DNA of 64,000 bases from Escherichia coli (GTDB lineage: Bacteria; Pseudomonadota; Gammaproteobacteria; Enterobacterales; Enterobacteriaceae), in assembly GCF_022846255.1 (NCBI RefSeq), contig NZ_AP025682.1; one strand, 5' to 3'. A model generated the notes under the pieces. The model saw nothing but the letters and a program-made list of their open reading frames with translations. It was not told the DNA's origin and made no database searches. This document shows positions 4,487 to 14,158 of the stretch, one piece after another. Each line of letters begins with the position of its first letter. The stretch's first letter is position 1. The position numbers were made by a program, and so were the translations under genes.

Positions 4487-5523
4487 AGTGCTGCCGCGTT
4501 GTAATATTCGTCGGTGTCCGGGGTCATTAGTGCCTGCTCCAGACGCTGCTGTTGTTCGTTATCGCCCGCCAGAACGGCGGTTTGTTGCGGATTCAGCCCC
4601 AGTTTGCGGAACAGTTGCAGATCTTTATCTTCTTCCGGATTCGGCGTGGTCAGCAGTTTGCAACCGTAGAAAATCGAGTTTGCGCCAGCCATAAAGCACA
4701 TCGCCTGAGTCTGTTCGTTCATCTGCTCGCGTCCGGCAGAAAGGCGTACGTAAGAGGTCGGCATCATGATCCGCGCTACGGCAATGGTACGGATAAAATC
4801 AAAGGCATCGACATCGTCGTTATCCGCCAGCGGCGTGCCTTTCACCTTCACCAGCATGTTGATTGGCACGCTTTCCGGCGGCGTCGGCAAGTTTGCCAGT
4901 TGCAGCAATAATCCGGCGCGATCTTTCACCGTTTCGCCTAAGCCCACAATGCCACCTGAACAGACTTTAATCCCAGCTTCTCGCACTTTTTCCAGCGTAT
5001 CGAGACGTTCCTGATAGGTGCGGGTGGTGATGATATTGCCGTAAAACTCCGGCGAGGTGTCGAGGTTGTGGTTATAGTAATCCAGCCCGGCATTCGCCAG
5101 GCGCTGCGCCTGAGATTCACTCAACGTGCCCAGCGTCATACACGCCTCCAGCCCCATCGCTTTTACCCCCTGCACCATTTGTTCCAGGTACGGCATATCG
5201 CGTTCGTGGGGATTCTTCCACGCCGCGCCCATACAGAAACGCGTCGATCCCGCCGCTTTCGCTTTGCGCGCCGACTCCAGCACCTGTTCAACTTCCATCA
5301 ACCGCTCGGCTTCCAGCCCGGTTTTGTAGCGCGAGCTTTGCGGGCAATATTTGCAATCTTCCGGACAAGCTCCGGTCTTAATCGACAGCAAAGTGCTGAC
5401 CTGCACCTGACGAGGATCGAAATGCTGACGATGCACCTGCTGCGCTTCAAACAGCAGATCCAGCAACGGTTTTTCAAATAATTCTGTGACTTGCGACAAT
5501 GTCCAGCGTGGGCGGTGAGCCAT
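4483..5523 (-). CDS. bioB: Biotin synthase (radical SAM)
   Basis: 346 aa; radical-SAM cysteine motif CPEDCKYC; divergent from bioA across the bio operator. Confidence 0.93.
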
Positions 5524-8869: not shown

Positions 8870-8879
8870 GAGCTGTTAA

Positions 8880-8992
<113 letters not shown>

Positions 8993-9009: not shown

Positions 9010-11271
9010 TTACATCTGACGGTTTTTATTGAAGTTAATCAAACTACCCGCCTTGATAATCTCGCGCTCTTCGGCCGTCAGGCTTTCCATATAGAGCGTG
9101 ATTTCCGTTACCGGCGCATCTTCATGGATCACATAACCTTTAAACGTCGTTCCAGGATTATCCAGCGCCGTTTTAATGCCAGGGATGTAAATGTAATCCC
9201 CCACTTCAAACGTTGGTGCTTCCGCCATTTGCAGCGGTAACATCCCCCAGTTGATGACGTTAGAACGGTAGCGTTTAGTCGCGTATTCCTCGGCAATATT
9301 CGCCAGACCGCCAATCACACGCTGGCAGCTCGCCGCCTGCTCACGCGCAGAACCATCGCCTGGTTTCACCGCATAGACCATGCTGCCAATTTCAGTTTGC
9401 AGCGGATCAATATGCTCCTGACCAGCAATCTGCTTAATGCGCGCAAACACCTCTGTCAGCTCGCTGACATTCCCCGCCAGACGCTGATTTTCCAGCTCAG
9501 CAGTCGCTTTACTTCTGCCAACATAACCGGGATCGCGGCGTGACAGGGTAAACTCCGCCAGACCAATCGGATTTGAACGATAAGAAGAGGTTTCACCGGA
9601 AGGAATCAGTTCGTCGGTGGTGGTGACTTCGTCGAGGATCTTCGAGCACACTTTGAGGACGATATTGTCAGTCAGCGCACCCAATTCCGGCCAGTCTTTG
9701 ATGTTCGGTCCGTAGATCAGCGGTTGCTGGGTCGCCCCTTTCACAAAGCCTTGATAGACGCGATTTTTATACGGCGTTACATCGAAGGCGTACTCCGGCA
9801 CGTTGTCCCAGCAATCGAGTTCGCTGGCAGAGGTTAAATAGCCACCGTTTGCCGCAGTCGCAGCGATAGAACGAGCGTCCATCAACGCCACCGCTGACAT
9901 CTGCCCATTAGCTGGCTTAGAGCCTTCGCGGTTCGGGAAGTTACGCGTGGTGTGGCGAATACTCAAACCGTTGTTGATTGGCGTATCGCCCGCGCCAAAG
10001 CATGGGCCGCAGAACGCGGTTCTGATGATTGCGCCTGCGCCAATCAAATCTGCTACCACACCTTTTTTGGCGAGATCCATAAACACCGGCTGTGATGACG
10101 GGTAAACCGCCAACGAGAAGGTATCGTTGCCGCAGGATTGACCGCGCAGCGCATTCGCCGCCGCGATGACGTTTTCGTAGTTACCGCCAGAACAGCCCGC
10201 GATAATCCCCTGCTGCACTTTCAGGCGACCATTTTCCACTTTATCCAGCAGCGAGAGTTTGGCTTTACCGTGCGCCACGCGTTCGGACTCAATTTCAATC
10301 TCACGCAGAATGTCGGTCAGATTCTGGTTCAGCGTGTCGATTTCATACACGTTGCTCGGGTGGAATGGCAGCGCAATCATTGGTTTGATGGCGCTTAAAT
10401 CAACACTGATGCAGCCATCGTAGTACGCCATTGGTTGAGGGTTAAGTTGGCAGTAATCCTGGCCGCGACCGTGCAGCGCCAGCCAGTTATGGACTTCTTC
10501 ATCGGTTTGCCAGACAGAACTTAAACAGGTCGTTTCAGTGGTCATCACGTCAACGCTGTTGCGGAAATCGGTAGAGAGCGCTGCAACACCGGGACCTACG
10601 AACTCCATCACTTTGTTTTTGACGTAACCGTTTTTGAACACGGCACCGATGATAGCCAGCGCCACATCCTGCGGCCCCACATACGGCGCAGGTTTTCCGG
10701 TCAGATGCACCGCAACCACGCCCGGATAGTCGATATCCCAGGTGTCATTAAGCAGTTGTTTTACCAGCTCGCCGCCGCCCTCACCGACTGCCATTGTCCC
10801 TAATGCGCCGTAACGGGTGTGGCTGTCTGATCCGAGGATCATTTTGCCGCCGCCAGCCATCATTTCACGCATATATTGATGGATGACCGCAATATGCGGT
10901 GGCACAAAAATACCGCCATAACGCTGGGCCGCCGATAAACCAAAAATATGGTCATCACCGTTAATGGTGCCGCCGACGGCGCAGAGTGAGTTATGGCAGT
11001 TGGTCAGCACATACGGCAGCGGGAAACGTTCCATACCGGACGCTTTAGCGGTCTGTACAATACCAACAAAGGTAATATCGTGAGAGGCTAATGAATCAAA
11101 CTTAATTTTAAGTTTATCCATATTACCAGACGTATTATGAGAAGAGAGAATAGACCAGGCAATAGTGCCTTTTTTTGCTTCTTCTTTTTTTATTTCGCCG
11201 GTGAAATGTTCTTCGGCAATTATTTCGTTATTGCTGGCGAGAAACACGCCTTTTTCAGATAACTTGATCAT
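9010..11271 (-). CDS. ybhJ: Aconitase-family hydratase
   Basis: ORF-track ORF 9010-11295 (761 aa); aconitase-like; start probably the internal Met MIKLSEK (753 aa). Confidence 0.85.
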
Positions 11272-11324
11272 CAAATGCTCCAGATATCTGCGCACCGTGA
11301 AGTGCGCAGAAAGATAATAAATGG

Positions 11325-11457
11325 ATATACTCTAAATAATTCGAGTTGCAGGAAGGCGACAAGCGAGTGAATCCCCAGGAGCTTACATAAGTAAGTGACT
11401 GGGGTGAGCGAACGCAGACGCAGCACATGCAACTTGAAGTATGACGAGTATATTTAC
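11325..11457. repeat. ERIC/IRU enterobacterial repetitive intergenic consensus element
   Basis: Contains gtgaatccccaggagcttacat (complement of ERIC1R primer) and aagtaagtgactggggtgagcg (ERIC2 primer) at 11367-11410; sits between ybhI and ybhJ. Confidence 0.85.
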
Positions 11458-12887
11458 AGCATGTTCCAGCCGATCAGCATATTCCACCACCACACGCCGA
11501 GGGTGATATGCACCAGGAAGGTTAATATCGTCAGTACCGCACCGACCAACCACCAGGATTTAATATCGTTGTAACCCACGCCAAAGATGACCGGACCTGC
11601 CGCGCCGCCATAGTGAGTAACCATGCCGCCATAGGAGTTAGAGAACAACAGTGCCAGCGCGGTTAACATTAACGGTGCGCCGGAGACGTTCGCCAGCATG
11701 GCAAACACAGGTAACATAGCAACGATATAGGCACTACCAGAAGCGAAGAAATAACGCACGATGATGCTGAGGAAAATAATAACGAAGAAAGCAACGTTCC
11801 CGTGACCATCAAATGCCAGGTTATTTTTAAAGACTTCAGCTAACCATTCGAAGAATTTAACTTTCGATAATAAGGAGCTTAAGCCGATAATACCGCCGTA
11901 CCAGATTAAGGTATTCCAGCCGCCTTTATTTTTAACCACGTCTTCCCAGGTAACGATACCCAGCAGCAGCATAGTTGCCATAACAACGATTGCCACGGTG
12001 GATTCATCAACCCCCAGAGACTTACTGAAAATCCAGCCCAGCAGCGCCAGCACAAAGACACCGAGCAGCATTTTTTCGCGGATTTTCATCGGTCCCAGTT
12101 CGGCAAGGCCCGCTTTAGCGATGGTTTTGTTATCCACCTTCTTAATTTCTGGTGGATACATGGTGTAAATCACCAGCGGGGTGACCAGCAGCATAATGAT
12201 GCCCGGCAATCCGGCGGCTAGCGCCCATCCACCCCAGCTAATTTGCAGGTGCAGAATGTCGTTGATCATTTTCAGCGCCAGAATGTTCCCCGCCATTGCG
12301 GTAAAGAACATATAGCTGGTGGTTTTAGTGACCATGTAAATGGACATCATCAGGTAATGTCCAACACGACGCGGACTTTTTTCCGGTTCTGATCCCAAAG
12401 CCACTGCCACGCTGTTGATGATCGGTAACACGATGCCGCCCGCACGCGCGGTGTTAGACGGTGTTGCCGGAGCCAGTACCAGATCGAGAAATACCGTAAC
12501 GTAACCCAGACCCAGGGTAGTGCTACCAATTTTACCAATCAGCAGATAGGCAATACGTTTACCTAAGCCTGTGGTTACAAACGCGGCGCTTAAAGTAAAC
12601 GCAGAAAACACCAGCCAGGTGGTACCGGAAGAGTAACCGCTTAATACGGCGGTGGTTTTAAATTCCCCACCTGATAAGTTACCCACCACGACCATCGATG
12701 CGGCGACGGCAATTAACAGTACGACAGGTTCCGGGAAAGGCTTGATAACCAGCCCCACAATGGCCGCCAGGTAAATACCAAAAAGCACCCACGCCAGTTC
12801 GCTTAATCCTGCCGGAGCTGGCATAAAGCCAATAATACATGGGATCGCTAATATCAGAATTAGCTTCCATAACGATTTTTTATTCAT
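11454..12887 (-). CDS. ybhI: Putative anion/tricarboxylate transporter (DASS/CitT-like permease)
   Basis: 477 aa highly hydrophobic polytopic ORF; gene order ybhH-ybhI-ybhJ. Confidence 0.85.
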   Translation of the reverse strand: MNKKSLWKLILILAIPCIIGFMPAPAGLSELAWVLFGIYLAAIVGLVIKPFPEPVVLLIAVAASMVVVGNLSGGEFKTTAVLSGYSSGTTWLVFSAFTLSAAFVTTGLGKRIAYLLIGKIGSTTLGLGYVTVFLDLVLAPATPSNTARAGGIVLPIINSVAVALGSEPEKSPRRVGHYLMMSIYMVTKTTSYMFFTAMAGNILALKMINDILHLQISWGGWALAAGLPGIIMLLVTPLVIYTMYPPEIKKVDNKTIAKAGLAELGPMKIREKMLLGVFVLALLGWIFSKSLGVDESTVAIVVMATMLLLGIVTWEDVVKNKGGWNTLIWYGGIIGLSSLLSKVKFFEWLAEVFKNNLAFDGHGNVAFFVIIFLSIIVRYFFASGSAYIVAMLPVFAMLANVSGAPLMLTALALLFSNSYGGMVTHYGGAAGPVIFGVGYNDIKSWWLVGAVLTILTFLVHITLGVWWWNMLIGWNML

Positions 12888-12962
12888 TTAATATCCTGTT
12901 CTTTCTGTATGACTCATACAGAATTCCTTTATTGATTGTCATTATCACGACAACAAAATTTT

Positions 12963-14015
12963 TCAGGGAAGATAAACTTCACCGGAAAATATTTTTCTTG
13001 TCGTCCGAATAACAGATGCGCGTAACGTCGTGGCATCCTGACCTTCATTACTTAAATGAACGTCGAGCGCACCACTGGGGTGTTCAATATTGATATTGCC
13101 GTATCCTACAGAAGGGACGATTTGTCGGGTGACGGTACCTTCCAATGCACAACTACTGGAAATAGCAATAGCACCGGTTATCGCCAAAGCGCGATGGCAA
13201 GAATGCGGCATAAAATAACGCACATTAATTGCCCCGCCTTTCTGCGCTGGAGAAATAAGTACAGGTTTAGGGATAACCATATTACTGACATCGCCTAAGC
13301 CCATTGCTTTACCCGCTTGTAGACGGATAGATTCAATGCGGGCTAATAATGCTTTGTCGGCATCCAGCTCTGCCGGTAATTCATAGCCTGTTTTTCCCAG
13401 ATATTCAGCAGGAATAATGACAACTGGCATCGCCATATCGATACAGGTCACCGGGACATCGTCAAAATAATCAATCTGATTATCCGTCGGGAAGACTTTT
13501 CCGGTTTTCGTTCCGGCGGCATTCAGGAAAGTGAGCGCAACCGGTGCGGCAGTACCCGGTACGCCGTCAATTCTGGCGCTACCCTCGTACTCGACAACAC
13601 CATTTGGCGTTTGCACATCAGCTTCGATAAACGTACCCGTATTGACGTTGCGGATACGTACGCGGGTAACTGGCGAAGTCGCTGCAATCAAACCATTTTC
13701 AATGGCGAATGCCCCAACGCCAGACAGCATATTGCCGCAGTTAGGCGTGGTATCGACACGTTGCTCATGGACGATAACTTGAGCAAACAGATAATCGACA
13801 TCTGCACGCGGATCGCTGGAGCGGCTAATAATGGCGACTTTACTGGTCAGCGGATTACCGCCGCCAATACCGTCAATTTCCAGATCGTTACCGGAACCCA
13901 TAATTGCCATCAATATTTTATCGCGCTGCGTTTGATCTTCGGGTAGATGTTCCGCTAACAGGAACGCGCCCCTCGAGGTTCCACCTCGCATCATCACGCA
14001 GGGTATTTTTTTCAT
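12963..14015 (-). CDS. ybhH: PrpF-family (methylaconitate isomerase-like) protein
   Basis: 350 aa ORF; PrpF/AcnD-accessory-like sequence; first gene of ybhHIJ. Confidence 0.85.
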   Translation of the reverse strand: MKKIPCVMMRGGTSRGAFLLAEHLPEDQTQRDKILMAIMGSGNDLEIDGIGGGNPLTSKVAIISRSSDPRADVDYLFAQVIVHEQRVDTTPNCGNMLSGVGAFAIENGLIAATSPVTRVRIRNVNTGTFIEADVQTPNGVVEYEGSARIDGVPGTAAPVALTFLNAAGTKTGKVFPTDNQIDYFDDVPVTCIDMAMPVVIIPAEYLGKTGYELPAELDADKALLARIESIRLQAGKAMGLGDVSNMVIPKPVLISPAQKGGAINVRYFMPHSCHRALAITGAIAISSSCALEGTVTRQIVPSVGYGNINIEHPSGALDVHLSNEGQDATTLRASVIRTTRKIFSGEVYLP

Positions 14016-14137: not shown

Positions 14138-14158
14138 GCAGTTAAAATTTTTAACTGC
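14138..14158. promoter_or_regulatory. Perfect 21 bp palindrome in ybhD/ybhH divergent promoter (candidate LysR-type operator)
   Basis: gcagttaaaa-t-ttttaactgc read directly from sequence; lies 40 bp upstream of the likely ybhD start. Confidence 0.5.

Follow-up and report, generated by a model that had tools for sequence, protein, structure and literature searches.

An ERIC element and an older stem-loop in the ybhI-ybhJ spacer of Escherichia coli

Gene arrangement and the ERIC copy

There are three co-oriented minus-strand genes at the locus considered here, namely ybhH (12963-14015), ybhI (11454-12887) and ybhJ (from 9010 to its ATG at 11269-11271), and they are found in a window of 64,000 nucleotides, by which we mean the whole stretch of E. 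coli DNA that was analysed. The LysR-type regulator gene ybhD lies on the plus strand and is divergent from ybhH. In matching RefSeq E. coli sequences ybhI is annotated as an anion permease and ybhJ as a hydratase. The spacer between the ybhI stop codon (TAA, 11454-11456) and the ybhJ start measures 182 nucleotides, of which an ERIC element fills 127-129; a first-pass annotation of this DNA had put the gap at 130 bp. The same gene layout is present in K-12 MG1655, wherein the ybhI-ybhJ spacer is also 182 bp.

Read in the mRNA sense, the ERIC element (11452 to 11326) begins one base downstream of the TAA and is followed by an AU-rich spacer, UCCAUUUAUUAUCUU (11325-11311), and a small stem-loop (11310-11287). 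Five nucleotides then precede the SD sequence GGAG (11281-11278), and six more separate this from the AUG. The AU-rich spacer, which separates the ERIC stem from the small hairpin, is predicted to be single-stranded and is unpaired in both the MFE and the centroid folds. The GGAG and ATG that make up the ybhJ translation start region (11269-11281) are invariant across the orthologous-junction alignment (A1).

A promoter scan revealed no sigma-70-like promoter in the ybhI-ybhJ spacer, and a terminator scan revealed no terminator-like site on either strand of 11272-11453. Thus, there is no support for a promoter of ybhJ's own or for a classical terminator. Since the gene order ybhH-ybhI-ybhJ is also kept in four genera, a single polycistronic mRNA is the likeliest arrangement. 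From the gene order, the spacing and the lack of a promoter or terminator consensus, we infer that ybhJ is co-transcribed with ybhHI. No study of the ybhI-ybhJ spacer was found in the literature on ybhJ, ybhI and ybhH.

The larger element of the spacer is a full-length ERIC/IRU MITE at 11326-11452 (minus strand), which is 127 bp long with both flanking TA dinucleotides and has a body of 123 bp. The mRNA strand of the element is the reverse complement of the window's plus strand, and the plus strand reads ERIC2 directly together with the complement of ERIC1R. A 44-nucleotide ERIC core is matched exactly at 11367-11410, where zero matches are expected by chance, and it carries both ERIC-PCR primer sites, the complement of ERIC1R first and then ERIC2; these two primer sequences co-occur in 233 papers. 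The terminal inverted repeats are 26 nucleotides each and 81% complementary. The repeat that is 5' in the mRNA (11428-11453) starts one nucleotide past the ybhI stop codon, and the repeat that is 3' in the mRNA (11325-11350) holds the AU-rich sequence AAUUAUUUA (11333-11341), which by analogy is a candidate RNase E site. The RNA of the element folds into a long stem-loop with a predicted stability of -45 kcal/mol in the mRNA sense and -56 kcal/mol in the antisense direction, and the fold of the whole spacer has a z-score of -4.96. The element could be aligned end to end with seven independent copies at other loci and in other genera, which were drawn from a plasmid collection. The first-pass annotation had recognised a full ERIC/IRU repeat with both primer sites, and the alignment and the folds bear this out.

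With its length of about 127 bp, its terminal inverted repeats, the TA at both flanks, the core with its primer sites, the intergenic location adjacent to a stop codon, the long RNA stem-loop and the many dispersed copies in Enterobacterales, this is an ordinary copy of an already-known element that is also present in K-12. It has no structural difference from the ERIC/IRU family, and only its extreme conservation between species stands out. There is a median of 11 ERIC places per E. coli genome (range 2-21), and 341 plasmid-collection records from Salmonella, Klebsiella, Citrobacter, Pantoea, Rahnella and Yersinia contain the element. No further copy was found in the 64-kb window or in the 50 genome loci. 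Five IMG/VR 'viral' contigs with the exact core all represent the same ybhI-ybhJ chromosomal locus (L053-L057) and therefore are not independent copies; presumably, they carry host DNA flanking prophages in the vicinity of bio/att-lambda.

ERIC is not represented by a family in Rfam, and an E-value-mode scan of 10800-12000 yielded no family above its gathering score. The sub-threshold matches on the ERIC element are V_AS5 and isrH. The former (RF02818, Vibrio antisense RNA AS5) aligns over positions 1-129 of 129 with the element on the plus strand (E = 8.6e-9), with a score of 46.9 bits against a gathering score of 96, and by the Rfam criterion the ERIC copy is thus not a member. The resemblance suggests that the Vibrio V_AS5 RNA is probably the transcript of an ERIC-type repeat.

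Junctions from other genomes were read after a scan with the YbhI protein, with one genome per species. The site is empty in SCPM-O-B-8794 (L003) and in E. coli GF4-3 (L052), both of which read GCTGTAAATATCCC. Comparison of the empty TAAATA|TCC with the filled TAAA-TA-[TACTCG...GAGTA]-TA-TCC places the ERIC insertion at a TA located one base past the ybhI stop. The filled spacer is 182 nucleotides and the empty one 57, and the difference of 125 corresponds to the 123-bp body plus one TA. The element occupies the same site in E. albertii and E. whittamii, and of all Escherichia in the set, E. albertii is the furthest removed when judged by third-codon-position identity. Another genome, Escherichia sp. 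MOD1-EC7003, lacks the ERIC and carries ten extra bases, TTATTTAAAA, past its ybhI stop (L004, about 5435-5445). Because these bases resemble the right end of the element, TTATTTAGAGT, they probably remain from an ERIC that was imprecisely deleted. The simplest history would be one old insertion and two later losses, and the two Escherichia lineages without the element keep ybhI and ybhJ intact.

Among complete E. coli genomes the locus is present in 5346 of 5426, and the full spacer in 5330 of 5426, K-12 included; among the best 60 matches to an empty-site query, only one is a single uninterrupted piece. The ERIC copy is therefore essentially fixed in the species (>98% of genomes). The presence/absence comparison that the first-pass annotation had proposed consequently uncovers almost no polymorphism.

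At the ybhI-homologous locus of Klebsiella indica (L015 5455-5477) there is a solitary ERIC-like left terminal repeat, TACCCGTCATATTTCAAGTTGTC, with 19 of 23 positions matching. It is located roughly 20 nucleotides past the stop codon of the ybhI homologue, and neither a right end nor a ybhJ homologue was found at that locus.

The ERIC copy of the window is identical to that of E. albertii at 129 of 129 positions and to that of K-12 at 128 of 129. In the same E. albertii comparison, the flanking 600 nucleotides of coding sequence are only about 90% identical, and the third-codon positions 73-80%. If the element diverged at the overall rate seen in the coding flanks, approximately 13 differences would be expected in it, and at the third-position rate approximately 30; the Poisson chance of observing none at the coding-flank rate is about 3e-6. 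Within E. coli, a 261-nucleotide spacer query is matched at 99% identity or more in 4346 of 5445 records, and a 951-nucleotide, mostly coding query in only 156 records. This conservation could be due to selection on RNA or DNA structure, or to gene conversion among copies. The latter is possible because another copy, next to E. coli fbaA (L058), is 99% identical to the one at ybhI-ybhJ. That copy is located 27 nucleotides upstream of fbaA, apparently inside the pgk-fbaA operon, and has the opposite orientation relative to transcription, which would make it a useful contrast case for orientation effects. The E. whittamii element (L018 5484-5515) has only three differences from the window copy, clustered as GCTCC -> GTGAC, and these turn the central imperfect ERIC hairpin into a perfect palindrome, CCCCAGTCACTTAC-TTAT-GTAAGTGACTGGGG. 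The cluster looks like a templated (hairpin-copying) mutation.

The small stem-loop upstream of ybhJ

A perfect inverted repeat of 9 bp makes up the small hairpin; it reads TCTGCGCAC-CGTGAA-GTGCGCAGA on the plus strand, with arms at 11287-11295 and 11302-11310. In the mRNA it reads UCUGCGCAC-UUCACG-GUGCGCAGA and ends five nucleotides 5' of the ybhJ SD. Its predicted fold has 10 pairs, the tenth being G-U, a 4-nucleotide loop and a stability of -17 kcal/mol. Thus, both an inverted-repeat search and folding agree with the first-pass annotation on the presence of a perfect 9-bp hairpin just 5' of ybhJ. There are, however, ten perfect 9-bp hairpins in the window, compared with 2.0 +/- 1.5 in dinucleotide shuffles. 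Because such hairpins are not rare, the reality of this one rests on conservation across species and not on the E. coli sequence by itself.

The junctions of Citrobacter youngae, C. koseri and Citrobacter spp. FP75 and On2M are free of ERIC, and their stem-loops align without gaps to the E. coli hairpin. In an alignment of eight sequences, 91% of the cells are paired and five of the ten pairs exhibit changes on both sides, a small sample for covariation that represents about five independent lineages. Neither the paired fraction nor the covariation score was equalled by any of 500 shuffles; two of the 500 reached the number of doubly changed pairs. When the pairing partners were slid by one to three columns as a control, pairing dropped to 19-68%. 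RNAalifold independently predicts the same helix. These compensatory substitutions at orthologous positions are those of a conserved cis-acting RNA stem-loop.

At the corresponding position, C. gillenii, Citrobacter Res13, Intestinirhabdus and Edwardsiella have stems whose sequences are unrelated. Between the end of the MFE structure and the GGAG there are 2-9 nucleotides, and in most junctions the core stem stops 5-6 nucleotides short of the GGAG, while the stem lies anywhere from about 15 to about 160 nucleotides past the ybhI stop. Folding z-scores lie between -2.3 and -6.9 in 9 of the 12 junctions. Weak stems are found in Citrobacter MGH106 and On2M, and C. sedlakii has a 25-nucleotide spacer with no hairpin.

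These comparisons show that the hairpin is older than the ERIC element and is part of the region where ybhJ translation starts, and that the ERIC landed between the ybhI stop codon and this older structure. The first-pass annotation had described both structures as inserted. For the ERIC this is supported by the empty sites; for the hairpin it is wrong, because Citrobacter species without the element keep the hairpin and exhibit compensatory changes in it.

Several other roles for the small stem were considered. It is not a REP, in that a 231-nucleotide query holding the hairpin finds a median of one place per genome, consistent with a single-copy sequence. An intrinsic terminator has the required stem, but the tail here is UAUCUGGAG, and because there is no U-tract the structure is not a classical terminator. 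When the stable hairpin forms, the MFE structure does not contain the alternative pairing (11256-11290) that would sequester the SD. An IRE-like aconitase site was set aside as the loop sequence is not conserved. Whether or not the ERIC element is present makes almost no difference to how accessible the ybhJ SD is predicted to be.

Transcript data and other palindromes at the locus

The one piece of direct RNA data found for the spacer comes from the antisense strand. Published mapping of RNA 3' ends in K-12 includes a minus-strand terminus at 803324-803335, dominant at 803327, which carries the annotation 'ybhJ.ybhI IGR' and rank 481, with adjusted p values of 3e-5, 0 and 1e-7 in three LB libraries (PMC10687069, Supplementary Data 3). 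Converted from the ybhI stop, these coordinates correspond to 11439-11450 of the window, dominant at 11447, on the plus strand, which is antisense to ybhHIJ. Window position 11447 is six nucleotides inside the distal end of the ERIC element, at the foot of its stem. With its 3' end at this point, the antisense RNA would span the start of ybhJ, the small hairpin and the ERIC element, and would be complementary to all three. No sense-strand 3' end is listed for the ybhI-ybhJ spacer in the 3'-end data sets searched, and the operon seems silent in standard media. For these genes, the supplements of another 3'-end mapping study in eLife list a single antisense site, at 805363 within ybhJ (PMC7815308).

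There are two further antisense features inside ybhJ. Window positions 9531-9596 on the plus strand match the published cis-antisense sRNA candidate ECS012, with one mismatch in 34 nucleotides; this candidate is 66 nucleotides long and gave a Northern band of about 120 nucleotides. It maps 1.9 kb upstream, far from the spacer, and is not the antisense RNA that ends at the ERIC. About 100 nucleotides inside the gene, at 11157-11180 on the plus strand, a terminator-like sequence AGGCAATAGTGCCT is followed by TTTTTTGCTT, and this site could end a short antisense transcript.

The ybhH-ybhI spacer also contains a perfect palindrome in the minus-strand mRNA, TTCTGTATGA-G-TCATACAGAA (12903-12923), approximately 10 nucleotides 5' of the ybhI SD. 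Its core TCTGTA...TACAGA is conserved in Escherichia and in several Citrobacter, and in E. albertii there is a compensatory change from UAUG/CAUA to UAUU/AAUA. With this palindrome and the stem-loop at 11287-11310 both located ahead of an SD, each downstream cistron of ybhHIJ has a hairpin ahead of its ribosome-binding site. The two hairpins share the stem base UUCUG...CAGA(A/U). The LexA consensus has N10 spacing, and a LexA box was rejected for 12903-12923, which reads CTG-N11-CAG.

Elsewhere, the divergent ybhD-ybhH spacer holds a perfect 21-bp palindrome, GCAGTTAAAA-A-TTTTAACTGC (14138-14158), upstream of the K-12-equivalent ybhD start, and this is a plausible candidate operator for YbhD. 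The convergent 3' ends of ybhC and ybhJ are separated by a cluster of REP-type palindromes at 8878-8988, GCCGGATGCGGCGT... / ...ACGCCTTATCCGGCC, which is a typical BIME.

Possible functions of the two elements

The explanation that we favour, at a probability of roughly 0.55, is that an ERIC element inserted in an early Escherichia ancestor, is now essentially fixed, and forms with the old covarying stem-loop a pair of separate elements that would be co-transcribed and act post-transcriptionally. What each element is, that the ERIC inserted, which of the two came first and how well they are conserved are matters of observation; co-transcription and action are where the conjecture begins. By analogy, both elements most likely are intercistronic structures involved in mRNA stability or processing, which is a known kind of mechanism.

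In such a mechanism, the small hairpin would mark the 5' edge of the ybhJ translation unit, a role suggested by its fixed place relative to the SD. It may block 3'-to-5' exonucleases coming from downstream, or protect the ybhJ segment from 5'-end-dependent decay after a cut in the AU-rich spacer, or both. It is predicted to leave the SD unpaired and is a possible insulator against pairing with upstream sequences. To this arrangement the ERIC would add its long, -45 kcal/mol stem-loop. Perhaps a ribosome that terminates at ybhI covers or opens the ERIC 5' arm, only one nucleotide past the stop, and the opened base of the stem would then free the AU-rich 3' arm AAUUAUUUAGAG and the adjoining spacer to RNase E. 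The outcome would be ybhHI and ybhJ segments with different lifetimes. On the opposite strand, the more stable ERIC stem (-56 kcal/mol) would define a stable 3' end for the antisense RNA.

Four other explanations were weighed against this one. The ERIC copy might be a selfish, neutral passenger that leaves ybhHIJ expression unaffected, such that only the ancestral hairpin, if anything, is functional. We consider this unlikely, though it deserves a real share of the credence: the element is a MITE found at a median of 11 places in each genome and in many genera, both Escherichia lineages that lack it have intact ybhI and ybhJ, and its presence hardly alters the predicted accessibility of the ybhJ SD. 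However, a passenger is difficult to reconcile with complete identity to the E. albertii copy where some 13 (overall rate) or 30 (third-position rate) differences are expected, with fixation in more than 98% of E. coli genomes, or with the ERIC stem shaping an RNA 3' end in vivo in K-12. That the small hairpin is a partial terminator or attenuator, with ybhHI and ybhJ as largely separate transcription units, is improbable. The absence of a U-tract (the tail is UAUCUGG in Escherichia and CAAUGUGG in Citrobacter), the empty terminator scan of the spacer, the lack of a promoter-like site to drive ybhJ independently and the lack of any listed sense-strand 3' end at the hairpin all count against it, as does the fact that the distance to the SD is conserved and the distance to the ybhI stop is not. 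It draws some support from the GC-rich stem of 9-10 bp after ybhI, and from a ybhD deletion study in which ybhH is upregulated, ybhH and ybhI are listed as targets and ybhJ is treated apart. That pattern is a weak hint of ybhJ uncoupling.

Far less credible still is a DNA operator for a dimeric regulator such as YbhD in place of an RNA structure. Three perfect palindromes do occur at the locus (14138-14158, 12903-12923 and 11287-11310), and the CUG...CAG closing pairs shared by the two intercistronic ones are invariant in alignment A2. Yet the half-sites change complementarily and follow no single consensus, the loop varies from 4 to 13 nucleotides, which would break half-site spacing, the stems of C. 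gillenii, Citrobacter Res13 and Intestinirhabdus are unrelated in sequence, and the site is located inside a transcribed spacer with no promoter nearby. Least probable of all is a chance inverted repeat without function; about two perfect 9-bp hairpins are expected per 64 kb, but chance accounts poorly for compensatory changes that keep the structure or for equivalent hairpins in four genera.

The favoured reading, with its two co-transcribed structures, can be compared with known systems. Intercistronic stem-loops set segmental mRNA stability, and 5' hairpins can be protective, as is the case for ompA. Engineered 'tunable intergenic regions' consist of a hairpin, an RNase E site and another hairpin. 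The ybhI-ybhJ spacer resembles such arrangements in having a GC-rich stem between cistrons, no U-tract, an AU-rich stretch beside it and a second large hairpin. A REP sequence between malE and malF was reportedly described by Higgins et al. in 1982; unlike REP, the ybhJ hairpin is single-copy and fixed in position relative to the downstream SD, and its effect on stability is a prediction.

For the ERIC element the closest parallel is in Yersinia, where copies adjacent to stop codons were reported by De Gregorio et al. in 2005 to destabilise upstream mRNA. Reviews describe this destabilisation as orientation-dependent and linked to RNase E, with a site exposed by the ribosome (PMC2229807, PMC3184786), and they report an ERIC effect on mRNA stability only for Yersinia. 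The copy described here is likewise located between co-oriented genes, one nucleotide past the upstream stop and with a 3' arm that is AU-rich in the mRNA sense. Of the seven other ERIC copies, three are oriented likewise and directly adjoin a stop codon, following ubiV, a Pantoea gene for a DUF1471 protein and zapB. By analogy with these three copies, the element may have the destabilising orientation. The proposal of the first-pass annotation, that altered mRNA stability or RNase E processing would uncouple ybhJ from ybhHI, agrees with these reviews and with an ERIC that adjoins the ybhI stop, is AU-rich in its 3' arm and precedes a putatively protective hairpin.

A bolder and rather doubtful extension is that the ERIC copy has been domesticated as an RNA module. 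In combination with the older hairpin, it would then form a regulator composed of a hairpin, an AU-rich site and a hairpin, which sets the ratio of ybhHI to ybhJ and caps the antisense RNA, and purifying selection would have held its 129 of 129 nucleotides since before the split between E. coli and E. albertii. In a more remote variant, the two operon hairpins that share UUCUG...CAGA(A/U) might be bound by a common factor, for example the aconitase-family protein YbhJ, as in the autoregulation of IRP/aconitase.

Intercistronic hairpins and ERIC-linked mRNA decay are both of established kinds, and there is no new element type at this locus. As one of about 10-20 ERIC copies per E. coli genome, at a site that is also occupied in K-12, the insertion by itself matters little. 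What is worth keeping is that the hairpin is ancestral and covarying, that this ERIC copy is conserved to an unusual degree and that natural empty and remnant alleles exist. Filled, empty (GF4-3 and SCPM-O-B-8794) and what looks like remnant (MOD1-EC7003) alleles occur in otherwise similar genomes and therefore offer a clean test of what an ERIC inside an operon does to segmental mRNA stability in E. coli. In addition, with a conserved hairpin just 5' of each downstream SD, ybhHIJ makes a tidy case for why such hairpins persist.
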